Shown here piece by piece: positions 21,207 through 62,975 of a stretch of DNA of 64,000 nt. This stretch comes from a virus. The DNA lies in the IMG/VR virus record IMGVR_UViG_3300033149_003115, positions 1 through 64,000 of that record, one strand, 5' to 3'. A model generated the notes under the pieces. The model saw only the letters and a list, made by a program, of their open reading frames with translations, did not search any database and was not told the origin of the DNA. Made by a program: the position numbers and the translations under genes. Numbering within the stretch: position 1 is the first letter of the stretch; each line of letters starts with the position of its first letter.

Positions 21207-22442
21207 ATGCCAAGAGGTAGTATTAGATCAGGAAATATCTACTCCATAACCCACAACCAGCTAGTTAAGATAGTCAAGAGAGTGTATGAGACTAAGGAAT
21301 CGCTGTTTGTACAGGGAGCTATAGGGATAGGAAAATCAGAAAGTGTTAGAAGAGCAGCTAAGGAGATAGCTCAAGAAAGAGGTCTAGAGTTCATAGAAAC
21401 CAAGTCTCCCAACCAGTATCCAGATAGGTTCTGTTTAGTGGATATTAGACTAGCTCAGAAGGATGCTGGTGAGATCCTGGGGTTACCAGAGAACTATGCT
21501 CTAATAGAGAAGAACGATAACCTCGATATCTTACCTGTCAAGGCTCTAGACGTGTTCCTATCGAACAACCACGATTCTGAGTATAGGATCATAGACTACA
21601 TCACTAGATGGAATCCTCCATCCTGGTTCCCAAGGAAAGGCAATGGTATCATATTCGTAGATGAGTTTAACCTAGCTCCTCCTCTAGTACAATACGCAAT
21701 GTATGAACTCATTAACGATAGAGCTCTGGGAGATTATCACCTACCAGAGGGATGGGTGGTTATAGGAGCTGGTAATAGAGGATCACTGGATGGAGCTACC
21801 ACATTCGAGTTCCCAGCTCCATTGAACGACAGGTTCCTATGGTATGAGCTAAAGATGCCATCAGTAGAGAAATGGACAGAGTATGCAGCTCGTAACGGAG
21901 TGGACTATCGTATTATAGGGTTCCTACAAACCACGAGATCAGCTATATACACCTTTAACCCCAAGTCTAAAGAGAAGGCTTTTGCTACACCTAGAAGCTG
22001 GGTCAAAGCTTCTAGGCTTATTAAAGGGGTGGAGGATGAGGATCTAGTGGAGCTATACCTCTCAGGTGCAGTTGGTAGCTATGTAGCTAAGCAGTTCAGG
22101 GCATACCTCCAAGCTAGGAGAACGTTACCTCCCACAGAGAAATACATCAAAGATCCCAAGGGGACAATGCTACCAAAGGAGAACGATCTGCTGTACACAT
22201 TATGTACTAACTTAGTGGAGTACCTGTCATATCATAAGGATGACAAGGATCAGGGTCTTCCTATACTCAGGAGCATACTGATATTCAGTGAGAGACTGAG
22301 CATGGAGTTTAGGACATTCCTACTCAAGCTAATAAAGCTCTCAGATGAGTCTTACTTCAAGGAGAACATCATTAAAATACCAGAGTTTGATAGGATATGC
22401 TCAACCATATCCAAGTACCTATTAAGAGAGGATGATGACTAG
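21207..22442 (+). CDS. MoxR-like AAA+ ATPase
   Basis: Walker A GAIGIGKS, Walker B IIFVDEFN, VIGAGN, PLNDRF, ATPRSW. Confidence 0.85.
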   Translation: MPRGSIRSGNIYSITHNQLVKIVKRVYETKESLFVQGAIGIGKSESVRRAAKEIAQERGLEFIETKSPNQYPDRFCLVDIRLAQKDAGEILGLPENYALIEKNDNLDILPVKALDVFLSNNHDSEYRIIDYITRWNPPSWFPRKGNGIIFVDEFNLAPPLVQYAMYELINDRALGDYHLPEGWVVIGAGNRGSLDGATTFEFPAPLNDRFLWYELKMPSVEKWTEYAARNGVDYRIIGFLQTTRSAIYTFNPKSKEKAFATPRSWVKASRLIKGVEDEDLVELYLSGAVGSYVAKQFRAYLQARRTLPPTEKYIKDPKGTMLPKENDLLYTLCTNLVEYLSYHKDDKDQGLPILRSILIFSERLSMEFRTFLLKLIKLSDESYFKENIIKIPEFDRICSTISKYLLREDDD

Positions 22443-23718
22443 CATGACTGGAATGAGTGTAGAAGACAAGATAATCAAAGCTAGAGTCCAAATGATATCC
22501 AAAGCTCCATTCTATGGTACTCTGGTGATGAACCTTAACTTTAAAGAAGCAGATCCCAGAGAGATACCCACATGTGCGGTTACCCCTTATGGAACTGTAT
22601 ATTACAACAGAGAGTACATAGAGAACCTGACCCTGGAAGAGCTAAAAGGTGTACTAGTTCATGAGGTGCTTCATGTAGCTTTGCTACATCTGGAAAGAAG
22701 AGGAACCAGAAACATCATCAAAGCCAACATGGCTATGGATTATGCAGTTAACCTCATAGTAGAAGAGGACTTCTCCTTACCTAAGGGAGTATTGCTAGAT
22801 CACAAGTATCAGAACATGGCATGGGAGCAGATATATGATCAGCTACCAGATCCTGAGCTTTGTGATGGAGACTGTAGCAAGTGTCCTCTAGCCAAGGGTA
22901 TGGGTATCCCAGGGAGAGGGTTTGGTAACAAGGCATGTAGGAGATTTGGTAGCTTTGACAAACATATAACCAGAGATGAGCTAGAAAGAGCCAAGGAAGC
23001 TGCTAAGTCAGGTGCATCAAGTGATGATCTAAAGAAGCTAGGAATACCCAAGGAGATCCTGGATGAGGACACCTCCAAGTCTCCTAATTGGAGAAAGATA
23101 ATGTCTGATGCTTATAACTATGCCAAGAACGCAGGCAACCTACCAGCTGGGTTAGAAAGACTAGTGGATGAGTTCTCTCAACCTCAGATATCCTGGAAGG
23201 AGCTACTATCACAGTATGTTAGCAGATCTATTCCCTATAACTTCACCTATCGTAGATGCTCCAGGAAGTCTATAGTGTCAGGACACTACTTCCCATCTCT
23301 CTTGAAGGAGATGATAGAGGTGATGATATGTGTAGACACATCAGGCTCAATAAATGAGGATGATCTAAGGGAGTTCATGGGAGAGATACTAGGACTACTA
23401 AGAAGCTTTGAGAGAGTGGAAATAACATTGATGTCATGTGATACCCAGCTATACCAGGTCAACAAGGTGTCTAATGAATATGATCTAAGAGCATCCAAGC
23501 TAGTGGGTGGAGGAGGTACATCATTCAGACCTGTGTTCAAATACCTGAGAGAGGAAAAGAAGGACACCAAGATCCTAGTCTATTTCACTGATTGTTATGG
23601 GGACTTCCCTGATCCAGATGAGGTTCCATCTGGGTTAACAGTAATATGGGTGGTTACCAGAGATGGAAACCCTGAAGCTATACCAGAATACTTCCCATAT
23701 GTGGTTCAGCTTAAATGA
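22432..23718 (+). CDS. DUF2201-type metallopeptidase plus VWA domain protein
   Basis: LVHEVLH, N.AMDYAVN, MIDAS DTSGS, GGGGTSF, YFTD; usual partner of the upstream MoxR ATPase. Confidence 0.85.
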   Translation: MMTSMTGMSVEDKIIKARVQMISKAPFYGTLVMNLNFKEADPREIPTCAVTPYGTVYYNREYIENLTLEELKGVLVHEVLHVALLHLERRGTRNIIKANMAMDYAVNLIVEEDFSLPKGVLLDHKYQNMAWEQIYDQLPDPELCDGDCSKCPLAKGMGIPGRGFGNKACRRFGSFDKHITRDELERAKEAAKSGASSDDLKKLGIPKEILDEDTSKSPNWRKIMSDAYNYAKNAGNLPAGLERLVDEFSQPQISWKELLSQYVSRSIPYNFTYRRCSRKSIVSGHYFPSLLKEMIEVMICVDTSGSINEDDLREFMGEILGLLRSFERVEITLMSCDTQLYQVNKVSNEYDLRASKLVGGGGTSFRPVFKYLREEKKDTKILVYFTDCYGDFPDPDEVPSGLTVIWVVTRDGNPEAIPEYFPYVVQLK

Positions 23719-27661: not shown

Positions 27662-28273
27662 GTGTTGAAGAACCCTGTAACAGATTTTAGTACTTTAGAC
27701 AAGCAGAGGCGATACTGGGAGAGTGCTGATCCAAGCTTAGTTGGACCTCTAGATGCATCAAGGCTTGGAGGATGGATAAGAGAGCTGCATCCTGAGGATT
27801 TGTCTGGTAGGATACTAGATCATGGATGTGGAGTAGGGAGAGTCTATGAGGCTATTGCTAAGCCCAGTAGCTACATAGGGGTAGATATTAATGAGAAATA
27901 TCTAGAGATATTCAGATCCAAACATCCAGAAGCTATAATCATGAAGCTAAGCTCATGGGAGCTACCATTTCTACCAGAGTATTTTGATCATATCATTTCA
28001 TACTCAGTGTTTACACACTTTGATGTACATCAGATGGCATTTATGCTAGGAGAGTTCAACAGAGTGCTCAAGGTTAATGGTGAGGTACTCTTAACAATAT
28101 TTAGAGAAGAAGAGGTGAAGACACCAATTGGGAACTGGACAACAGTCAGTAGGGATCTATTTGGTTGTCTACTTAACACCCTAGGGTTTGAAGTTGTGAA
28201 TGAGGTCTTGATACCAGAAAGTGGTTATCACCAGGATTTCATCTTAGCTAAGAAGCAGGATGATGTTGTATGA
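27662..28273 (+). CDS. class I SAM-dependent methyltransferase
   Basis: ILDHGCGVG, YIGVDIN, FDHIISYSVFTH, RVLKVNG. Confidence 0.85.
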   Translation: MLKNPVTDFSTLDKQRRYWESADPSLVGPLDASRLGGWIRELHPEDLSGRILDHGCGVGRVYEAIAKPSSYIGVDINEKYLEIFRSKHPEAIIMKLSSWELPFLPEYFDHIISYSVFTHFDVHQMAFMLGEFNRVLKVNGEVLLTIFREEEVKTPIGNWTTVSRDLFGCLLNTLGFEVVNEVLIPESGYHQDFILAKKQDDVV

Positions 28274-28641
28274 GAATCTACATAGCAGGTCCATATAGTC
28301 CAGTTAGAGCAAAGGACAAACATGAGGCAGTTCAGGTAGCTGCTAAGAATGTCCATAGAGCCATAGAAGCTGGAATAGTACTGATAGAGAAGGGACACCA
28401 CCCATTCGTACCACATCTAACACACTATATTCATGTTCATCCATCATGTCCTAGAGACTATGGGAAATGGTGGTATGAGTATGACATGACATTTCTGGAG
28501 CTATGGGCTGAAGCTCTTCTCTATCTTGCTCCAAGCAGAGGAGCAGATAAGGAACTAGAGAGAGCTAAGGAACTTGGATTGAGGATCTTCTACTCTATAG
28601 ATGAAGTACCAGACATTTCCAATAGAGCTCCATCAGAGTGA
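28270..28641 (+). CDS. DUF1937/DUF4406-like protein (nucleoside deoxyribosyltransferase-like fold)
   Basis: RIYIAGPY, PFVPH, SRGADKELERAKELG. Confidence 0.7.
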   Translation: MRIYIAGPYSPVRAKDKHEAVQVAAKNVHRAIEAGIVLIEKGHHPFVPHLTHYIHVHPSCPRDYGKWWYEYDMTFLELWAEALLYLAPSRGADKELERAKELGLRIFYSIDEVPDISNRAPSE

Positions 28642-29426
28642 GGAACTTGAATCTATTCTACCACCTAATACAGGGAGACTGCTTAGAAGCTCTCTCAAAG
28701 ATCGATGATAACTCTATAAATCTGGTAGTTACTAGTCCACCATACAACGTAGGTGTAGACTATGGTGTTTACAAGGATAATCTAGACTGGGATGAGTACT
28801 ACAAGTGGTGTGAGAGATGGATGAGAGAGATCTACAGGGTCCTTAAGCCAGATGGAAGAGCCTGCCTAGATCACTACATCAGCTTTGGCTCTAGTAAAGC
28901 AAGATCAAGTCCAGCTCTAGATCTTCACTGTCTATCTAAGAAAATAGGCTTTAAACACCATGCATTGGTGATATGGGAAGAGAGAACTAGAAGTAAATAC
29001 ACAGCTTGGGGTAGCTGGTTAAGTGCATCTGCTCCATGTATCAACTCTCCCTATGAGGCTATTCTTATCCTCTATAAGGATCAATGGAAAAGGATCAATA
29101 AAGGCAAGAGCACAATAGCTAAGGAGGAGTTTCTTGAGGGAGTTTCTGGGATATGGAGACTAGGAACAGATAAGATACGCTTGACTCCAGCTACCTTCCC
29201 AGAGTCACTACCCAGGAGATGTATTAACCTATTTACGTTTGAAGGTGATGTAGTCTTAGATCCATTTATGGGATCTGGAACAACAATGAAAGCTGCTCAG
29301 GACCTTAAGCGGAGCTGTATTGGTATAGAGATAAACCCAGACTATTGTGAGACTATAAAGAAACGATGTTTTGGTAGGATGTTTCTAGACTGTGATGTTG
29401 AATATAGATTTGAGATCATTGAATGA
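28638..29426 (+). CDS. beta-class DNA methyltransferase (SPPY, likely N4-cytosine)
   Basis: VVTSPPYN, PATFP, VLDPFMGSGTT. Confidence 0.9.
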   Translation: MRNLNLFYHLIQGDCLEALSKIDDNSINLVVTSPPYNVGVDYGVYKDNLDWDEYYKWCERWMREIYRVLKPDGRACLDHYISFGSSKARSSPALDLHCLSKKIGFKHHALVIWEERTRSKYTAWGSWLSASAPCINSPYEAILILYKDQWKRINKGKSTIAKEEFLEGVSGIWRLGTDKIRLTPATFPESLPRRCINLFTFEGDVVLDPFMGSGTTMKAAQDLKRSCIGIEINPDYCETIKKRCFGRMFLDCDVEYRFEIIE

Positions 29427-29727: not shown

Positions 29728-30621
29728 ATGAATGACTTTAAAATTGTTTTATTAGGACACTTAGGAGTGGGATCTATATTCGGAATGATCACCAGAGGAA
29801 ATGAACAGAATAGATTTCAAAGATGGCTGAGGAACGAAGCATGGGAAAAAGCTAAGACAGCTGTTGGGGTTCCAGGGACCTACCCTGATATCCTAGTTAT
29901 AGGTGGAGAAGTAGGAGAGGGACAGAACAGGCTCGATTTCTGTGAGGATATCTGGTTACCAGACTATGAAAAGCAATCCATGATGGGAGCTGAGCTCATA
30001 AGTGAGTGGATAGGTGAGAACACTAAAGAGGTTCTAATTCTCTATGCTCATAGATATCATGGGATGAAAGAGATCAGGTTTGAGGATTTGCTAGCTAAGG
30101 ATCTAAAGATACTTCATCCCAACAAGAAGATACTGGTAGGAACTCAGTTTATCAGATCATACTTTGGTAAGACACTGAGGTTCAGACATGGTACATCTGG
30201 AGCTTTTGTATACTTATCAAGTGCTAATGAGAGACAGATCAAGTTCAACCTGATAGAGTATAGCTTAGGTAAAACACCAAAGTATGACTTCAGCTATGAG
30301 TTCCATAATCACAGAGCAGCTGGAGCCATGTTTGAGACCATTGGATCTATGTGGTGTCCATGTTTCAAGCTAATAGACAGATATGCAGAACTTAGACACC
30401 CCGATGCATGGTTACCAGACATAGGTCTACTAGCTATCACATTCCAGGTTAGGTTTGGTGATGTGAGAGTAAACAATGATCCTATCCTGTTTTATCCTCC
30501 CTTCAGGTTTGAGGATCTGGAGACTGCTATTAGAGACTTTAACAAGGTGTTAGAGGAGAAGAGAAAGGAAACGTATAAGAGACAGCTGGAGCTCCTGAAG
30601 AAGGATACATCATGTTCATAG
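29728..30621 (+). CDS. divergent calcineurin-like phosphoesterase with altered metal-binding motifs
   Basis: IVLLGHLGVG, VIGGEVGEG, RFRHG, FHNH at the positions of the DxH, GDxxD, H and GHxH motifs. Confidence 0.5.
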   Translation: MNDFKIVLLGHLGVGSIFGMITRGNEQNRFQRWLRNEAWEKAKTAVGVPGTYPDILVIGGEVGEGQNRLDFCEDIWLPDYEKQSMMGAELISEWIGENTKEVLILYAHRYHGMKEIRFEDLLAKDLKILHPNKKILVGTQFIRSYFGKTLRFRHGTSGAFVYLSSANERQIKFNLIEYSLGKTPKYDFSYEFHNHRAAGAMFETIGSMWCPCFKLIDRYAELRHPDAWLPDIGLLAITFQVRFGDVRVNNDPILFYPPFRFEDLETAIRDFNKVLEEKRKETYKRQLELLKKDTSCS

Positions 30622-30691
30622 GATAAGCTATGATATGATCCGATGAGATCTGCTTGGTTGTGCTTAGCCAGGTTATGCTAATCTTAGATAA
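30609..30691 (+). ncRNA. pentamer-repeat unit 1 (candidate guide RNA): ATCATGTTCAT leader plus 14 GHT-NN pentamers
   Basis: 12/14 pentamers from 30622 begin G[ACT]T. Confidence 0.75.
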
Positions 30692-30703
30692 CTAGAATAA
30701 TAT

Positions 30704-30776
30704 ATCATGTTCATGGGCTTTGATATGTTAAGCTGGGTTAAGCTCGGTTGTGCTTAGTTGAGCTGAGATAAGTTAA
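30704..30776 (+). ncRNA. pentamer-repeat unit 2 (candidate guide RNA): ATCATGTTCAT leader plus 12 GHT-NN pentamers
   Basis: 12/12 pentamers from 30717 begin G[ACT]T. Confidence 0.75.
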
Positions 30777-30803
30777 ATAGGCTAAATTGTAATTAACGTT
30801 ACA

Positions 30804-30905
30804 TTCATAAGCTCTGATTTGATAAGATATGATGGGTTAGGCTGTGATTAGTTTGGCTTAGCTACGTTGGGTTCGGTTAAGCTAGGATAAGATGTTCTTA
30901 GACAT
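30804..30905 (+). ncRNA. pentamer-repeat unit 3 (candidate guide RNA): TTCAT leader plus 19 pentamers
   Basis: 17 consecutive G[ACT]T-NN from 30811, then TCT-TA GAC-AT. Confidence 0.75.
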
Positions 30906-30936
30906 AATTTGAGCTATGATAATTGGAGGTGATATT

Positions 30937-31506
30937 ATGGAGTCAGATTTGATATACCAAATAAGATGTAGAATAATAGGACTAAGACCATATCTACAAC
31001 ATAGAAGACCCATAGACAAGAAAGAGAATAAAGAGCTAAGTAACTTGATTAAAATACTACAGAAAGATGCTACTGATGAGAAAGCATATACTAAGGAAGC
31101 TGAGTACTATGTCTACAAGAACGACAATGGATACTATATTCCATCCATACACATCAAGAGTGCTATGATCAAAGCTTCTACTAACTTTAAGGTAGGAGGG
31201 AAAGGTAACAAGACATACAAGGATTTCGTTAAAGGATTCGTAGTAATAGATCCAAAAGAGATACCAATAAATCCTCAAAAATACACTCTAGATAGAAGAT
31301 GGGAAAGAGTACAACAAGCTAGGATCATGAGAACTAGACCTAGATTTGATGATTGGTCAGCTGAGTTTAATCTAATTAGCTTAGATGAGACAGTATTACC
31401 AATGAAAGACCTAAAGAAAATCATAGTGTATGCAGGAAAGTATATCGGTATTGGAGATAGAAGACCAGAGTTTGGTAGGTTTAAAGTAGAGTTTCTAGAT
31501 GACTAA
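30937..31506 (+). CDS. stand-alone RAMP (Cas7/Csm3-like) protein; candidate Vipr-type RNA-guided effector
   Basis: N-terminal IxCRIIGLRPY strand, YYIPSIHIKSAM (RAMP YIPxSSxKG-like), RPRFDDWSAEF, Gly-rich loop AGKYIGIGDRRPEFGRFKV; RBS GGAGGTG at 30925. Confidence 0.8.
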   Translation: MESDLIYQIRCRIIGLRPYLQHRRPIDKKENKELSNLIKILQKDATDEKAYTKEAEYYVYKNDNGYYIPSIHIKSAMIKASTNFKVGGKGNKTYKDFVKGFVVIDPKEIPINPQKYTLDRRWERVQQARIMRTRPRFDDWSAEFNLISLDETVLPMKDLKKIIVYAGKYIGIGDRRPEFGRFKVEFLDD

Positions 31507-31541: not shown

Positions 31542-31751
31542 GTGAAGTCCAATATCTACTTATGTTTTGATCATTATACCCATATTTGTCCTAAGATAGG
31601 AAACCATGAGATCTGTTGTTACTCTTGTCCCTATTATATTCCAGAGCTTCACAGGTGTACTAAGAGAGAAGGGTTTGGATGTATAGAAGATCCATCTAAG
31701 TGTGAATATAGAATAAAGCTAACTAAAGAATATGTAATGGAAATACTCTAG
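31542..31751 (+). CDS. Cys-rich family B protein
   Basis: IYLC...CP...CCYSCP...C...C...C; tail VMEIL. Confidence 0.65.
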   Translation: MKSNIYLCFDHYTHICPKIGNHEICCYSCPYYIPELHRCTKREGFGCIEDPSKCEYRIKLTKEYVMEIL

Positions 31752-32415: not shown

Positions 32416-32486
32416 GATCATAGTGAGATTAGTTAAGCTTTGTTCCGTTAGGCTCGGCTTCGCTAGGTTAAGTTAGGTTAAGTTTA
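32416..32486 (+). ncRNA. pentamer-repeat unit 4 (detached candidate guide RNA)
   Basis: TCATAG leader, then 12/12 G[ACT]T-NN pentamers from 32427; intergenic. Confidence 0.7.
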
Positions 32487-32551
32487 ATATCACTAAATGC
32501 CGATACTATCGTTATATCCTGATAATAGATTAATAAGAGGTGTATTTAGAA

Positions 32552-36396: not shown

Positions 36397-37584
36397 ATGA
36401 TACCTCGTGAGATCCTTTATGATATAAGAGAGGGTATGAAGAATAAGTCATTACCAAAGGCTATCTCAATAATAGCTCAGAGACTACACTTAGGATCTGG
36501 GGATTATAAGAGATTCTCCCATTCTATCAATGGTCATAAGTGGAGAGGTATCATATATTACAAGAGAAATAGCCTACTAGGAACTATATTCTCATACTTT
36601 GATAGTAAGCCATTGGTGATCAAGGGATATCCTAAGATACGTTACTCAGAGGTATCCAGAGTTAGAGACAAGGAGTGTTATCTAGAGGCTAAGTACGATG
36701 GCACCAACCTGGGGTTCTGGATGTTCCCTGATGGTACTCTAATGGGTAAAACCAGGTTTGTAGAGCGTTATGATCGTCCAGGATACGAGGGTAGGAGATG
36801 GAGTGAGCTCATTAGTGACACTGGATACATGGATCAGATAGCCAAGCTATGTAAGGATGATTATTCCCCATTTGGTGAGCTTTATGGATACAGGAACCCA
36901 GGTGAGTTTATCAGGTACTCCACTCCCATAGACATCAAGTTCTTTGAGGTGTGTGATCTGAGGACCATGGAGTGGATAGAATACAATAGAAAAATAAAGC
37001 TACTAGAGAGCTATGGTCTCAGACCAGTGGAGCTATACTGGCATGGAGTACTATCATTAAAAGAAATAGCCAGGTTAGAATATGAAGCTAAGCAATATGT
37101 CTGCTTGGATGGTATGGAAGGGTATGTAGCAAAGTGGTATAGCTCAGAGGATAGAGAGACTTACATGGCTAAGCTCAAGTGTGATGACATCAAGGAGAGA
37201 GCATGGGGTTTATCTCCCAGATCCACCATCCCAAGATCCGTGATCTCCAAGGCTGTCAAGAAGGCTCTTGATAATAGATCCAGCTTTAGTACCTTGAAAG
37301 AGGTGGAGGACTTTGTTAGAGAGGAATTGTTGGAGGAGGCTACCAAAGAGCTGGTTAATAGAGTGGATAAGAAGATCAAGAGGATAGTGAAAGGAGCCTT
37401 TGGTAATATTGAAGATCAAAAGAAGATATGGGACTACTTTGAGGAGCTAGAGTCCATGGGTGTTTCTATTGATAATAAGAATAAGATCCTCTCTCTAGCA
37501 GCTAGTGTCTTTAAGGACATCAACCCAAGTGAGCTCTACAGAGCATATTGTGGATATCTGGCTATTAGAGAAATTAGAAGGTAA
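36397..37584 (+). CDS. ATP-dependent RNA ligase family nucleotidyltransferase
   Basis: motif I EAKYDGTN, FGELYG, IKFFEV, EGYVAK, MAKLK. Confidence 0.8.
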   Translation: MIPREILYDIREGMKNKSLPKAISIIAQRLHLGSGDYKRFSHSINGHKWRGIIYYKRNSLLGTIFSYFDSKPLVIKGYPKIRYSEVSRVRDKECYLEAKYDGTNLGFWMFPDGTLMGKTRFVERYDRPGYEGRRWSELISDTGYMDQIAKLCKDDYSPFGELYGYRNPGEFIRYSTPIDIKFFEVCDLRTMEWIEYNRKIKLLESYGLRPVELYWHGVLSLKEIARLEYEAKQYVCLDGMEGYVAKWYSSEDRETYMAKLKCDDIKERAWGLSPRSTIPRSVISKAVKKALDNRSSFSTLKEVEDFVREELLEEATKELVNRVDKKIKRIVKGAFGNIEDQKKIWDYFEELESMGVSIDNKNKILSLAASVFKDINPSELYRAYCGYLAIREIRR

Positions 37585-40055: not shown

Positions 40056-40557
40056 TTGATCTGTATAAGCTGTGGTAAAGAGTTCAATTGTGACTCTAAA
40101 TATAGACTACATTGTACATTCTACGAGACAGGCGAGTGTTATTGTCCTTCTTGCGATATTGAGCTCCATTATTCTGAAAGCAATATATCGAGCTTAGAAC
40201 CTAGAGAGGTAGATATCCTCTTTGAACAATATGTCCTACATCATGTTAGGTGTTATGGGTCTAAGAGTCTTATCAAATATTCAGATAAAATATTACATCT
40301 TTATTTTAAAGGGAGGAATAATGTTTAAACATCTTTGCTTAGAATGTAACAAAGAGTTCCAATGTACTGGAGAAGGATGTACATCTTATTTTCCTTATAT
40401 CTCAACATGTCCTTGTTACAAATGTTTTCTGGAGATTAACAAGAGCTTGATATTAAATCCTGACTTAGCTGGATTTGTTAGAGAACAGTTTATTCTATGT
40501 TATGGTGAGTCTAAAGTACATTATTTTGATAGATATTTAGTACGGGAGACCTTGTAA
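40056..40557 (+). other. two Cys-rich family A genes (40056-40328, 40321-40557)
   Basis: CxxCxKEFxC...CxCxxC...CYG; second starts at ATG 40321, tail VRETL. Confidence 0.7.
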
Positions 40558-41366
40558 TGTATCCTAAAGTATTATCTTTACATTGTACTAATCAATGTAA
40601 TCTAAGATGTAGATTCTGTTATATACCCAAAAATAAGAGATCTAAACCATTGAATTGGTTCTTGGATATTCCATCTGTAGCTAGAGACATAGGGATAGAA
40701 CAGATAGCCATAGGTGGAGGGGAGGTGACCTTATTCCCCAAGTTCCTAACCAAGCTAGCTAAGAGGTGTGTAGAGAATGATATTATACCCAACCTCACCA
40801 CCAATGGGATCAAGTTCGATCCATCCAAAATAGATACCAGCTTGTTTGGAGTGATATCCTTTAGCTTGGACTCTTACAAGATGTCTCATCTAAGCTATCA
40901 CCATCTGAGACGTATCATATCTAGTATCCAGAAATATCCTGACAGAGATCATAAGCCTAAAATCGGGATTAACTATTTACTCCTTAACAAGAGATCTCTA
41001 TACCAGCTTCCTCTGGTGATCAGATCTCTTGATGATATTGTGGACAGCTGGTACATCTTACATCTTAAATATCACCCAGTGGACTATAAGAGGAAAGACC
41101 TTGAGGGTGTCCTATACCTTCTTTCCCCTTTCCTTAGAGACAAACTACTGGTGGATGATTCTATTCAGGTCATCCTGGGTAAGAAGGAGATCTGTAATAG
41201 AGGTAGAGATCTGGTTAGTATAGATCCAAGTGGAAATGTCAAACCCTGCTCTTTTGACTCTTCCATAGGTTACTTGAATGATCCTAGAGATCTTAAAGAC
41301 ATAGTAAACATGTACTATCCTATGATGTTTGATGATAATAGGTGTCCTTATATTGTCTACAAATAG
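40557..41366 (+). CDS. radical SAM protein
   Basis: CNLRCRFC, IAIGGGE, LTTNG, SFSLD, C-terminal GNVKPC. Confidence 0.9.
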   Translation: MYPKVLSLHCTNQCNLRCRFCYIPKNKRSKPLNWFLDIPSVARDIGIEQIAIGGGEVTLFPKFLTKLAKRCVENDIIPNLTTNGIKFDPSKIDTSLFGVISFSLDSYKMSHLSYHHLRRIISSIQKYPDRDHKPKIGINYLLLNKRSLYQLPLVIRSLDDIVDSWYILHLKYHPVDYKRKDLEGVLYLLSPFLRDKLLVDDSIQVILGKKEICNRGRDLVSIDPSGNVKPCSFDSSIGYLNDPRDLKDIVNMYYPMMFDDNRCPYIVYK

Positions 41367-54783: not shown

Positions 54784-55773
54784 TTGGTTAAACTATCAGA
54801 TATACCTGGAGTGGGTCCATCCACTGTGGAGAGGCTAGAAGCTAAGGGAGTATTAACTGTAGAGCAAATGTCTATTATGGATCCAGAAGAGCTTAAAGCT
54901 ATTCTGGAATGTTCCCTGGCTAAGGCTAAGAAGCTGATCAAAGGAGCTAAGGATCTAAGCAAGGATGCTATCAAGATCCTAGATGGGGATGCACTACTAC
55001 AGGAGAGAAAGAGCAAGATACAAAGAATATCAACAGGTAGTAAGGATCTGGACACTATACTGGGAGGAGGGGTACCAACTGATGCACTAACAGCATGGTA
55101 TGGACAGTTCAGTACAGGGAAAACACAGCTTTGTAACCAGTTGGTTATTAATATGAAGAAACAATACAATAGAAAGTCAGCTTGGATAGAGACAGAGCCT
55201 CAGACCTTGGTGATAGAGAGACTACTAGAAATATCCAAGGCTCAGGGAGTTGACTTTGATCCCAAGACTGATCTATATGTGATAACAGCTAAGTTCATGG
55301 ACTCTCCTGTTCACATGTTCAAGGCATATGAGGCTATAGAGTCTAAGATCAAGATGGGAGAGGACATAGGGCTAATAGTCATAGACTCCTTTAATGCTAT
55401 CTTCAGGAGCACTTACACTGGTAGAGAGATGTTGCCAGCTAGATCAGCTGAAACTGGTAGACATATAGGGTACCTACAGAAGCTAGCATCCAAGTATAAC
55501 ATAGCAGTTGTGATGACTTTACAGGTGATGGGAGTTCCTGACTCTGGTTCTCAGCTTGGAGCCATTAAGCAATATGGGATCAGAGAGGTGCCAGTGGGTC
55601 CTCATGTCCTGAAACATGGGGTTAATTACATGGTTGGATTACAAAGGATATCAGCTAATGACAGAACATGGTCAGCTATAGTGGCAGATGGTCCTGTTCC
55701 TAGGGGAGATTGTGTGTTTGTAATAGATGAGACAGGAATTAGAGACTTCAGGAGTAGAAAGGGAGTAAGATAA
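54784..55773 (+). CDS. radA: archaeal RadA recombinase
   Basis: N-terminal HhH IPGVGP, ISTGSKDLDTILGGG, Walker A GQFSTGKT, LIVIDS, FRSTYTGRE. Confidence 0.9.
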   Translation: MVKLSDIPGVGPSTVERLEAKGVLTVEQMSIMDPEELKAILECSLAKAKKLIKGAKDLSKDAIKILDGDALLQERKSKIQRISTGSKDLDTILGGGVPTDALTAWYGQFSTGKTQLCNQLVINMKKQYNRKSAWIETEPQTLVIERLLEISKAQGVDFDPKTDLYVITAKFMDSPVHMFKAYEAIESKIKMGEDIGLIVIDSFNAIFRSTYTGREMLPARSAETGRHIGYLQKLASKYNIAVVMTLQVMGVPDSGSQLGAIKQYGIREVPVGPHVLKHGVNYMVGLQRISANDRTWSAIVADGPVPRGDCVFVIDETGIRDFRSRKGVR

Positions 55774-60386: not shown

Positions 60387-62975
60387 ATGAGGCTCTGCCT
60401 GACCAATATAGACTACAAGATAGAGGACAATGCTCCAGTTGTTTACATGTTTGTGAGGGACATAGAGGGGAATAGGTACATCATTAGAGACAATAGCTTT
60501 GAGCCTTATTTCTATATTAGAGAGAAAGACTACAATGTCTTGAGACTGGATGACAAGAGGAGAGGGTGCATTAAGAGAGTTGAGAAGGGGAACTTCAAGC
60601 TCTTAAGGGCTAGTAGAAGAGGAGTGAAGATAGTAACTTATTTACCTGGTCAGGTCAGGGAGCTCAGGAACTGGTTACACTCTATGAGGGATAGGAGGGA
60701 GCATCCCAGAGGGATAGAGACGTATGAAGCTGATGTGTTGTTTGTCTATAGATACCTTATAGATAGGAAGATCATCAATGGGGTGGAGATAGATGACAAG
60801 TATTTCAGGATATGTAAAGACCTTGGATATATCCCCTGGAGTGATGAATATTGTGGACCAGCAAATGTTGAGTTCTCCAGGGTTAGATGTTTGTTTATAG
60901 ATATTGAGGTCACAGACGGGATCCCCAAAGAGGGGTACACATCCCCAGTGACCGTGATAGGGACTTATGACTCTTTCACCAGACAATACCATGTGTTCTA
61001 TTGGAGGGGATCCCATTATTCTATCTCATCTGATCATATCATATACAGCAGATCAGAGGATGGCATGTTTGTTAGGTTCTTGGAGTATGTTAGCAAGATA
61101 AACCCAGATCTTATCCTCTCCTTTACCAAGTTTGACATGTTGTATCTTATCAAGAGGATGAGAAAGATCAGGCTAGATCCCTCAGTGTTATCTCAGATAG
61201 GGACAGTGAAGTGTTATGACAAGATGGAGAGAGTGAGCATAGGTGGTGTTGAGTACATAGACCTGGGACAGGTGTACAAGAAGGTGGTGAGAGGACAGAA
61301 ATGGGAGACTCTGGATGCTATCTCTAACAGGGAGCTAGGGTATGGTAAGAAGAGGCTAAGCAAGGGTGATATATACTCTACCTGGATACATGATTATAGG
61401 AGTGTGTTACTCTATAACCTCAGAGATGTGTTCTTGATCAAGAAGCTAGATGAAAAGCTTGATCTTGTGGATTACTTGGATGTTATCAGGAGAATAGTGG
61501 GGTGTAGGTTCAATGATGCTATGTTTGCAGCTAGAGTGGCTGATATCCTCTACCTGAGGTTGCTAAATGGGAAGCTAGCCTTGTTCTCTAGACCTATGGA
61601 GAGAGCTAAAAGAGGGTACCTGGGAGCAATGGTGTACACAGCTAAGAAAGGTATTTACGATCATGTTGTGTGTCTGGACTATAGGTCATTGTACCCCTCT
61701 ATCATCAGGGCTTACAACATTGGCTATAACACCTATGATCCGATAGCTGGGGATATAGTGATAGCTGAGAACTACAAGTACAGGAGTGATGTCCAGAGCT
61801 GGACTGTTAAGATATTAAATGATCTAAGTCCTCTCCTGGATGAGAACAAGAGAGAGATAGAGAAAGCTAAGAAGGCTAAGGACTTTGCTGAGGTTAAGAG
61901 ACTAAAGAGAAGACGTATGGCTCTGAAGTCTATTGTAAATGGTATCTATGGCTTCTATGGGTATGCAGGGAACCCAGATGAGCATCACCCAGCTGCTAGG
62001 TTATATTCATCCGACATAGCAGAGTCTATCACAGTAGCAGCTAGGAAGCTACTAGAGAAGACATGGAGCATAGTCGGGGATCTGGGGTATGAAATGGTGT
62101 ACTCTGACACAGACTCAGTATTTGTCAAGCTAAAGGGGACTGATAACTACATGGATGAGAGCATGGAGCTTAAAGACAAGATAGAATCCAGGTTGTGGAG
62201 CTATATCAGGGAAAGATGGAGGATAGACCCTTCTAACTTCATACTAGACCTGGAGGATGTCTATAAGAAATTTGTGATATTGACTAAGAAGAGATATAGT
62301 GCTCTGACCATAGATGGGGATAGAATAAACAAGGGACTGGAGATAGTCAGGAGGGATCAATCAGATCTGACGGTGGAGACCCAGAAGGGGTTACTGGATC
62401 TGATCCTTAAGGATGCTCCAGTATCCAGGATTAGGGAGTTTGTCAAGGGACAGATAAGGAAGCTAGACACTGAGCCATTGGAAAGGGTGGGGATAGCTGC
62501 TATGCTTCAACAGAGGAGGGACAGCTACACCAGTGCAGTTATCCATCTCAAGGCATTTGAATTTGCTAATCAGGTGTTGAAGCTCGATCTAGAGGAGGGT
62601 GAGAGGTTCTATTATATCTTCATCAAGCCATACAAGCTAAAGAGAGTGAGGATAAGGATCAGGCTGAGCAGCCCAGTCATGAGCTCTCAGGGAGAGATCT
62701 ATGATGTGGTGAGCGATGAGGGCAAAGGGTACCAGAATAAGAAGATAGCTCACATCACCAGGGACATTATCAGTGATGTGGCTGGGTTCAGATCATCATC
62801 TGATCTTGAGAGAGCTCCTGGGATAGTTGTGGACAAGGAGAGGTTATTGGATCGTACTATAAAGAGCAAAGTGGAGGATCTCCTAGATCTGGTGGGTTTA
62901 TCATGGAGTGAGATATTAGATGAGACAAGGAACCAAAAGAGATCAAGGCTTGACTACTATTTCTCATCAAGCTAA
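60387..62975 (+). CDS. polB: family B DNA polymerase, archaeal type
   Basis: ExoI DIE, ExoIII YNLRD, DYRSLYPSII, KSIVNGIYG, YSDTDS, KKRY, KGLEIVRRD; PIP-like RLDYYF near C-terminus. Confidence 0.95.
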   Translation: MRLCLTNIDYKIEDNAPVVYMFVRDIEGNRYIIRDNSFEPYFYIREKDYNVLRLDDKRRGCIKRVEKGNFKLLRASRRGVKIVTYLPGQVRELRNWLHSMRDRREHPRGIETYEADVLFVYRYLIDRKIINGVEIDDKYFRICKDLGYIPWSDEYCGPANVEFSRVRCLFIDIEVTDGIPKEGYTSPVTVIGTYDSFTRQYHVFYWRGSHYSISSDHIIYSRSEDGMFVRFLEYVSKINPDLILSFTKFDMLYLIKRMRKIRLDPSVLSQIGTVKCYDKMERVSIGGVEYIDLGQVYKKVVRGQKWETLDAISNRELGYGKKRLSKGDIYSTWIHDYRSVLLYNLRDVFLIKKLDEKLDLVDYLDVIRRIVGCRFNDAMFAARVADILYLRLLNGKLALFSRPMERAKRGYLGAMVYTAKKGIYDHVVCLDYRSLYPSIIRAYNIGYNTYDPIAGDIVIAENYKYRSDVQSWTVKILNDLSPLLDENKREIEKAKKAKDFAEVKRLKRRRMALKSIVNGIYGFYGYAGNPDEHHPAARLYSSDIAESITVAARKLLEKTWSIVGDLGYEMVYSDTDSVFVKLKGTDNYMDESMELKDKIESRLWSYIRERWRIDPSNFILDLEDVYKKFVILTKKRYSALTIDGDRINKGLEIVRRDQSDLTVETQKGLLDLILKDAPVSRIREFVKGQIRKLDTEPLERVGIAAMLQQRRDSYTSAVIHLKAFEFANQVLKLDLEEGERFYYIFIKPYKLKRVRIRIRLSSPVMSSQGEIYDVVSDEGKGYQNKKIAHITRDIISDVAGFRSSSDLERAPGIVVDKERLLDRTIKSKVEDLLDLVGLSWSEILDETRNQKRSRLDYYFSSS

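Follow-up and report, generated by a model that had tools for sequence, protein, structure and literature searches.

The locus described here raises the question of what is encoded where a gene for a 189-aa RAMP-like protein is flanked, on its own strand, by tracts of five-nucleotide units. The window that we analysed is a stretch of 64,000 nt, positions 1 to 64,000 of IMG/VR record IMGVR_UViG_3300033149_003115, which is a complete viral record of 113,897 bp (~114 kb). A class of systems with similar anatomy, VIPR (Viral Interference Programmable Repeat), was first published in April 2026 (10.64898/2026.04.26.720920, 10.64898/2026.04.26.720927), and non-canonical VIPR repeat units followed in October 2026 (10.64898/2026.10.21.760802). 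We conclude that the locus is very probably a VIPR system with a G-H-T scaffold, which by analogy with the SUSP1 and P. fulva systems would make it an RNA-guided system for DNA binding that a virus encodes. What we have is a variant of known VIPR and no new kind of system or principle; both VIPR itself and the existence of non-canonical scaffolds are on record in the 2026 preprints.

We assign the locus to VIPR because the 189-aa protein matches the Vipr protein of SUSP1 (PDB 36pp) over its full length, with residues 10-188 aligned to residues 5-191 of the 202 in chain 36pp_D (E = 1.3e-14). A profile built from the family finds 36pp as its sole PDB match (E = 1.4e-26), phrog_4652 matches the protein (E = 3.2e-26), and identity is ~30% to the vipr products of 131 phage records, SUSP1 among them. 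Pfam and NCBIfam returned nothing for Vipr. The start codon at 30937 lies 6 nt downstream of the ribosome-binding site GGAGGTGA and agrees with a 189-aa database entry. Viprs described so far are minimal RAMPs with a G-loop and a thumb; here, a single-sequence AlphaFold model had a pLDDT of 33, too poor for judging the fold. The protein had been called Cas7-like in the original prediction; this stands at the level of the RAMP superfamily, as claimed in the literature, but no Cas7, Csm3 or Cmr4 chain matched the family profile in the PDB search.

The features of the locus are collected in the table. The original prediction had placed TTCAT motifs at 30615, 30710 and 30804, ATCATGTTCAT in both of the first two tracts, TCTTAGA after the first and third, and a 315-nt gap upstream of the ATG at 30937, and all of these were found as described.

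Features of the candidate VIPR locus (positions are those of the window)
Feature	Position	Strand	Remarks
297-aa metallophosphoesterase-like protein, candidate VIPR accessory (vap-like)	29728..30621	+	conservation upstream of vipr
vrRNA candidate 1	30609..30703	+	leader ATCATGTTCATAG overlaps stop codon of upstream gene
vrRNA candidate 1, units	30622-30681	+	12 G-H-T/NN units, then tail starting TCTTAGA
vrRNA candidate 2	30704..30803	+	leader ATCATGTTCATGG; 12 units at 30717-30776; short tail, possible 6-bp hairpin
vrRNA candidate 3	30804..30936	+	leader TTCATAA; 17 units at 30811-30895
vipr, 189-aa Vipr-family RAMP protein	30937..31506	+	G-loop GIGDRRPEFGRF
Three small ORFs: 69 aa (Cys-rich), 66 aa, 135 aa	31542..32413	+	between vipr and array 4
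vrRNA candidate 4	32417..32539	+	leader ATCATAG + 3 nt; 12 units at 32427-32486; tail

Chains of G-[ACT]-T at an exact 5-nt spacing make up all four tracts, with 12/14 units fitting in tract 1 (30622-30689) and every unit fitting in tracts 2 (30717-30774, 12/12), 3 (30811-30893, 17/17) and 4 (32427-32484, 12/12). The longest chain in 200 shuffles of the window was 6, and no other G-H-T arrays were found in the whole 113,897-bp genome. Of the 55 units, 54 start with G and 54 have T at position 3, and position 2 is A in 16, C in 20, T in 19 and G in none, such that the scaffold indeed differs from GGY, as had been claimed. In the 55-unit logo the fixed positions carry 1.87 bits, compared with 0.17 and 0.19 bits at positions 4 and 5, where 14 of the 16 dinucleotides are used. 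As a positive control, we ran this chain finder on the published SUSP1 locus, testing for GGY. It recovered three arrays, of which one precedes vipr and two follow vap1; the paper describes one vrRNA upstream and three downstream, four in all. Our 17-unit tract is one over the published range, since 9-16 units per vrRNA are given in the VIPR preprint.

The sequences around the units are less regular. The tails, of 22-53 nt, are of two kinds (TCTTAGA... and ...CTAAAT...), and that of candidate 3, which starts with TCTTAGA, extends into the vipr ribosome-binding site. Their predicted folding is no better than that of shuffles (z-scores -1.2 to +0.5), and they differ among three related viruses (the source virus, its sibling G001, and L159). 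Rfam gave no match for the array RNAs, hammerhead included, and no sigma-70 promoter or terminator signals were above chance at the locus.

Period-5 tracts could in principle act as DNA, for instance by bending the helix, as iterons, or as repeats that a protein binds at an origin or a promoter, with the adjacency to vipr being coincidental. Tracts with a period of 5 or 10 can bend DNA, and nothing specific favors this explanation here. It is opposed by the strand specificity of the conserved bases (on the coding strand they are G and T), by variable dinucleotides that run along the arrays without repeat order, and by the family as a whole: of ~190 Vipr homologues on contigs of viral, genomic or metagenomic origin, nearly all had adjoining period-5 arrays, in unrelated genomes. 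The proposed check of homologue flanks for such tracts thus came out in favor of the original prediction. In the first 108 loci, a set that includes L001 and the duplicate loci L002/L004, there were 834 array calls, each array possibly counted twice because both strands were scanned, versus 8 calls in shuffles. We regard a purely DNA-level role as extremely improbable. With a full-length Vipr homologue and adjoining period-5 arrays, the guess of a VIPR system, which the original prediction offered, is supported.

Two close relatives are informative about what is kept. Vipr is 66% identical in sibling virus G001 and 69% in L159; both retain a GDRRP loop with the same arginine together with G-n-T arrays, and their NN strings are unrelated. 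Scaffolds of the broader G-n-Y class were also seen in our survey in L015, L030, L040-42, L053-54, L086 and L159. The arrays of G001 are visibly more degenerate, and both solo and decoy vrRNAs are known from satellites and from relatives of SUSP1, which raises the alternative that the tracts are relics, either decaying or orphaned, or else "solo" decoy vrRNAs for loading the Vipr of a competitor. Against this, 54/55 units retain the G and 54/55 the T, the cognate vipr is intact and adjacent, and in three viruses this scaffold occurs together with this loop variant. A decoy for a GGY-type Vipr would also need GG, which is absent from 55/55 units. We therefore consider remnants or decoys very unlikely, and favor arrays that serve the adjacent vipr.

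The absence of GGY does not exclude the locus from VIPR, because the VIPR literature allows "a related consensus" besides GGY and reports non-canonical units. Published examples include NNNGG, YNNNG and NNNNG arrays (10.64898/2026.04.26.720920) and GAC/NN, CAC/NN, WGT/NN and TGH/NN arrays (10.64898/2026.10.21.760802). Like the locus described here, these are period-5 arrays beside genes of the Vipr fold in which the trinucleotide is not GGY and, in some, one position is degenerate. The difference is that G-H-T/NN keeps G1 and Y3, and only its middle base is degenerate and non-G. None of the motifs that the main text of the VIPR preprints names is G-H-T.

How might the scaffold be read? We transferred the residue roles published for SUSP1 by alignment to 36pp_D. 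The residues that read G1 and Y3 are conserved, and the matches comprise H17 (here H22), D177 (D174), R138 (R134), R179 (R176), K33 (K39) and K82 (K89). Among the residues compared, the one that differs is the G-loop aromatic that stacks on G2 (W178 in SUSP1 and Y176 in P. fulva), which is replaced by R175. A non-G middle base fits the replacement of this aromatic by Arg175 while the G1 and Y3 readers are retained. Across 137 loci, loop residue and GG scaffold are associated in the raw count (Fisher p = 4e-11), but the phylogenetically independent pairs number 7 (sign test p ~0.6), and for this reason we do not claim co-evolution of loop and scaffold. Loops with His, Asn or Gln had mixed scaffolds across the surveyed loci.

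Overall, the locus closely resembles that of SUSP1, a Type II VIPR composed of Vipr, Vap1 and four vrRNAs (PDB 36pp). Vipr length and domain span are alike at ~30% identity, and the residues contacting G1, Y3, the skipped base and the non-target strand are kept. In both, four tracts of pentamers, each pentamer with a fixed trinucleotide and a variable dinucleotide, flank vipr on the gene strand, in a viral context without a CRISPR array and without self-targeting. The differences lie in the scaffold (GGY there, G-H-T here), the G2-stacking residue (Trp there, Arg here), the arrangement of the tracts, with three upstream and one downstream reversing the order in SUSP1 and one tract having 17 units, and the tails, which here are short with predicted folds no better than shuffles, and there are conserved, ~40 nt long and contain a pseudoknot. 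We noted no vap1 homologue, and a metallophosphoesterase-like gene lies upstream instead. SUSP1 is an Escherichia phage, whereas the host here is probably archaeal. The genes of our virus are all on one strand and include those for a phage-type ATPase, an HNH protein and PolB. An archaeal tailed virus is plausible, although the evidence for it is indirect.

The setting is viral and free of a CRISPR array, as described for VIPR; a search for 16-mers recurring at least three times at 45-100 nt spacing found no CRISPR-like repeats in the 113,897-bp genome. We also weighed membership in Class 1 CRISPR-Cas and rejected it, there being no repeat-spacer array and no Cas chain that matches the family profile. 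According to the literature, the Cas7 backbone of those systems shares the RRM, G-loop and thumb logic, a base-flipping thumb, and protomers that each take up a fixed step of the guide RNA. However, the step is 6 nt with 5 pairing bases in Class 1 CRISPR-Cas and 5 nt with 2 pairing bases in VIPR, and the genome described here lacks a CRISPR array, other cas genes and spacer acquisition machinery.

The original prediction had vipr as a stand-alone gene, which is open to doubt given the conserved metallophosphoesterase-like gene that adjoins vipr upstream. Its 297-aa product is 86% identical in G001, compared with 66% for Vipr; in L159, the 3´ end of a homologue precedes the arrays; and an HMM of the 297-aa family matches a same-strand ORF immediately upstream of vipr at 10 further loci, giving 13 loci with the source virus, G001 and L159. 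The protein had no sequence match in Pfam, NCBIfam or the PDB. Its neighbours in the ESM Atlas carry Metallophos, and weak Foldseek matches of a model with a pLDDT of 61 are mostly to the metallophosphoesterase fold (PolD DP1, Mre11, LpxH and Vps29). We suggest this gene as a candidate VIPR accessory gene; VIPR loci are described as small and as carrying a vap accessory gene, with vap1-6 published. The three small ORFs between vipr and array 4 had no family matches and no homologue anywhere in G001 or the other loci compared, and were rejected as conserved accessory genes. They lie within the array-flanked locus, yet are not conserved with it.

Searches for natural targets gave negative or chance-level results throughout. 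In the virus's own genome, no self-targets were above permuted-guide nulls at skips of 0-3, and absence of self-targeting is published for VIPR too. Guides compared with genomes in both directions between the source virus and G001 were at chance level, as was a search of five related records for the complete vr3 pattern, allowing up to 3 mismatches. An exact-seed scan of IMG/VR with a 9-unit seed gave 0 matches, and four 8-unit seeds gave 16, 27, 20 and 16 matches with no significant extension. The best foreign match, 22/24 in L239, was rejected as a target: ~0.6 such matches are expected by chance over 79 seed matches, GC content is 49% versus 40% here, and there is no clear coding-frame pattern. 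The nearest archaeal MAG is a Parvarchaeota MAG; in 401 genomes from its phylum, vr2 with up to 3 mismatches had 2 matches, versus 2 for the control.

The lack of a mobile-element target under the 1-nt skip rule is one reason to ask whether a genuine Vipr-vrRNA ribonucleoprotein might have another job or follow another rule, such as control of the virus's own or host genes, RNA targeting, or a different skip length, the last being conceivable because the scaffold pocket differs. The changed G2 pocket residue, an accessory gene that resembles a metallophosphoesterase enzyme and not DNA-binding Vap1, and the ability of published VIPR filaments to pair with RNA as well would all be compatible with such a role. 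We nevertheless think it unlikely. The own genome has no match above chance at skips 0-2, and the counterparts of K33 and K82, which in SUSP1 contact the skipped-base backbone and the non-target strand, are conserved. The negative target result also weighs little, because the search was shallow, with exact seeds of 8-9 units.

We favor a role in DNA binding, for which the SUSP1 and P. fulva complexes suggest a model. The four plus-strand tracts would be transcribed and give rise to vrRNAs of ~90-130 nt, on which one Vipr protomer per pentamer could assemble into a helical filament. In the filament, the scaffold bases G-H-T would be sequestered and the variable dinucleotide of every unit left exposed, and the exposed bases may jointly read double-stranded DNA in a gapped code, NN-x-NN-x... 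The likely purpose would be to silence a competing mobile element, or to damage it with an accessory enzyme. That one protomer binds each pentamer and that the NN bases form a discontinuous guide was already proposed in the original prediction, and matches the published VIPR mechanism, which by analogy supports it.

More tentatively, we can envisage an orthogonal code, a possibility to which we give limited weight. Arg175 might re-specify the middle base from G to non-G, insulating the system from rival GGY or decoy vrRNAs, with the metallophosphoesterase-like protein as effector. If this were true, the pairing of a metallophosphoesterase-type effector with Vipr would be one not so far described for VIPR in the main text of the preprints.

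As a class of RNA-guided DNA binders that read a gapped code, VIPR has been known for months only, and natural variants can reveal which parts of that code are fixed. At this locus, the G2 pocket and the middle base change together, providing a testable pair for scaffold recognition, Arg175 with non-G versus Trp or Tyr with G, which could be of use in designing protein-RNA pairs that are orthogonal. With this locus, VIPR also reaches into a large virus that is probably archaeal, and a conserved metallophosphoesterase-like gene emerges as a candidate partner.

The locus is a VIPR system, a virus-encoded RNA-guided DNA-binding system of a known kind. VIPR was first described in April 2026 and, according to the text of the discovery paper, consists of a minimal RAMP protein (Vipr) and guide RNAs (vrRNAs) of ~100 nt, each made up of 9-16 GGY/NN units and then a 3´ tail; one protomer binds per unit, and the NN bases read double-stranded DNA with one base skipped per unit (10.64898/2026.04.26.720920). 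The vipr ATG in the window lies 6 nt downstream of GGAGGTGA, and the protein database entry has the same 189-aa length. Pfam and NCBIfam gave no match for the protein. In a search of all PDB chains, the sole molecule matched was 36pp_D, 'SUSP1 Vipr protein' (E = 1.3e-14, with residues 10-188 aligned to 5-191 of 202), which a ten-homologue profile matched at E = 1.4e-26. The original prediction had likened the protein to Cas7; what was found is homology to SUSP1 Vipr, and no Cas7, Csm3 or Cmr4 chain was matched, even by the ten-homologue profile against the PDB. Vipr also matched PHROG 4652 (E = 3.2e-26), and tblastn found vipr at ~30% identity in 131 phage records, including SUSP1 and SUSP2. 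A single-sequence structure model was unusable (pLDDT 33). Together, Vipr homology and the adjoining arrays support the VIPR-like reading first proposed from the sequence.

Features of the VIPR locus and of the surrounding window
Feature	Position	Strand	Description	Leader
Chain 1	30622-30689	+	12/14 units fit G-[A/C/T]-T	ATCATGTTCAT(A/G)G
Chain 2	30717-30774	+	12/12 fit	ATCATGTTCAT(A/G)G
Chain 3	30811-30893	+	17/17 fit	TTCATAA
Chain 4	32427-32484	+	12/12 fit	ATCATAG + 3 nt
vipr	30937-31506	+	189 aa	
Candidate accessory gene	29728-30621	+	297 aa, metallophosphoesterase-like	
Cys-rich ORF	31542-31751		69 aa, C-terminus ...VMEIL	
DNA methyltransferase genes	27662-28273, 28638-29426		adjoin VIPR module	
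RNA-ligase-domain protein and radical-SAM protein	36397-37584 and 40557-41366		downstream of locus	
ATPase and HNH endonuclease	21207-23718		adjacent; phrog_1297 and phrog_1314, both strong matches	
RadA-type recombinase	54784-55773		HHH_5 + Rad51 domains	
Family-B DNA polymerase (PolB)	60387-62975		closest to haloarchaeal tailed viruses, 24% identity	

The arrays are as originally described. A chain finder returned four chains of G-[A/C/T]-T at exact 5-nt spacing; the longest chain in 200 shuffles of the window was 6, and no further such chain occurs on either strand of the whole 113,897-bp genome. With TCT-TA GA(T/C)-A after tracts 1 and 3 counted as tail rather than guide, the tracts comprise 12, 12, 17 and 12 units. 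Of the 55 units, 54 have G at position 1 and 54 have T at position 3; positions 4 and 5 carry <0.2 bits and use 14 of the 16 dinucleotides. Position 2 is A in 16, C in 20, T in 19 and G in none, which is not chance in 55 draws given a genome G content of 22.7%; the scaffold thus differs from GGY, as had been proposed. Each tract is preceded by a short common leader, that of tract 1 overlapping the upstream gene's stop codon. The locus has no excess of promoter or terminator signals, and the candidate vrRNAs have neither an Rfam family match nor a stable RNA fold.

Arrays adjoin vipr in almost every one of the ~190 Vipr-homologue loci gathered from IMG/VR, species-representative genomes and metagenomes, as the original prediction had anticipated for homologues' flanks. 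A register-free detector made 834 period-5 calls in the first 108 loci (a set that takes in L001 and duplicate loci L002/L004) versus 8 in shuffled copies, although one array may count twice because both strands were scanned. At the published SUSP1 locus, a GGY chain finder recovered three arrays, one upstream and two downstream. The closest relatives, the complete 107,896-bp sibling virus G001 (Vipr 66% identical) and the metagenome contig L159 (69% identical), retain the GDRRP loop and G-n-T arrays, with NN strings and leaders unrelated to those of the window; the position-2 G fraction is 0.00 in the larger L159 arrays. The G001 arrays are more degenerate and include some GGT units; most lie upstream of the metallophosphoesterase-like gene, 1.2 kb upstream of vipr, rather than between the two genes, so array position is fluid within the module. 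Other loci carry GGA/NN (L013, L082), G-T-Y/NN with the GDRRP loop (L021, L029), G-n-C/NN (L040-42, L053-54) or a unit built on TT that lacks a conserved G (L003), and the G-T-T arrays of L084 are opposite in strand to vipr. The discovery paper's text lists the patterns NNNGG, YNNNG and NNNNG (10.64898/2026.04.26.720920), and that of an October 2026 preprint describes 21 clusters of non-canonical units adjoining Vipr-fold genes, including GAC/NN, CAC/NN, WGT/NN and TGH/NN (10.64898/2026.10.21.760802). G-H-T/NN is not named in the text of these VIPR papers.

How might the protein accommodate this scaffold? By cryo-EM, H17 and D177 read G1, R138 holds G2, whose stacking partner is W178 (or Y176 in P. 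fulva), the Y3 pocket includes R179 and M72, and K33 and K82 touch the target and non-target strands (10.64898/2026.04.26.720927). Read against these roles, the 36pp_D alignment shows that the G1 readers (H22 and D174), the G2 holder (R134), the Y3 pocket (R176 and M77) and the strand contacts (K39 and K89) are kept, and that the G2-stacking aromatic is changed to Arg175. The fixed bases G1 and T3 thus retain their readers, and the altered middle base is left without a stacking partner; we infer from this alignment that the G2-pocket change may match the G-H-T scaffold. Loop residue and scaffold were compared over 137 loci that each encode a complete protein and carry 9 or more units: a GG doublet is present in 90 and absent in 14 with an aromatic loop residue, versus 8 and 25 with a non-aromatic one (Fisher p = 4e-11). 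In a tree-based test with only 7 well-supported independent contrasts, the sign test was not significant, and we therefore offer a link between Vipr loop residue and scaffold type as a hypothesis only.

Natural VIPR targets are satellites and prophages, and the own genome is not targeted, according to the discovery paper's text (10.64898/2026.04.26.720920). As expected for VIPR, the guides had no match in the virus's own genome that exceeded nulls from permuted guides, for skips of 0-2 target bases per unit. No targeting was found in either direction between the window's virus and G001, exact-seed scans of IMG/VR gave match numbers and extensions consistent with chance, and matches in 401 genomes with 3 mismatches allowed equalled the control's.

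The 297-aa metallophosphoesterase-like protein is 86% identical in G001, exceeding the conservation of Vipr. In L159, the 3´ end of its homologue precedes the arrays, and an eight-homologue HMM identified a same-strand ORF directly upstream of vipr in ten further loci (E 3e-154 to 3e-6). Its ESM Atlas neighbours carry Metallophos, and Foldseek with an eight-sequence AlphaFold model (pLDDT 61) gave weak matches, mostly of metallophosphoesterase fold (PolD DP1, Mre11, LpxH, Vps29). Invariant His, Asp, Glu and Asn are scattered through the family alignment; by eye, Gly occupies the usual Asp position of the first metal-binding motif, which makes enzymatic activity uncertain. The discovery paper recognizes seven VIPR types and six vap (accessory) gene families, and its text makes no mention of a metallophosphoesterase-type vap gene (10.64898/2026.04.26.720920). 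For the three small ORFs that separate vipr from tract 4, neither G001 as a whole nor the other compared loci contain a homologue. DNA methyltransferase genes also adjoin vipr in two related loci (L159:1110-1700, L003:3200-3910).

The window covers the initial 64 kb of the virus record. All long ORFs in it are on the + strand, no tRNA genes were found there, and the genome contains no CRISPR-like repeats. Both this genome and G001, each complete, have a 114-bp direct terminal overlap, which looks like circular permutation or assembly overlap rather than a true end; the G001 break falls directly upstream of vipr. The RadA-type recombinase, the affinity of PolB and the Vipr homologues that are nearest among cellular assemblies, which are from DPANN and Thermoproteota MAGs, indirectly suggest an archaeal virus, and the first two a tailed one. 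VIPR hosts include archaeal viruses, according to the discovery paper's text (10.64898/2026.04.26.720920). The 2026 preprints limit the novelty of the locus, a G-H-T VIPR system whose host is probably an archaeal virus and whose metallophosphoesterase-like neighbour is conserved.
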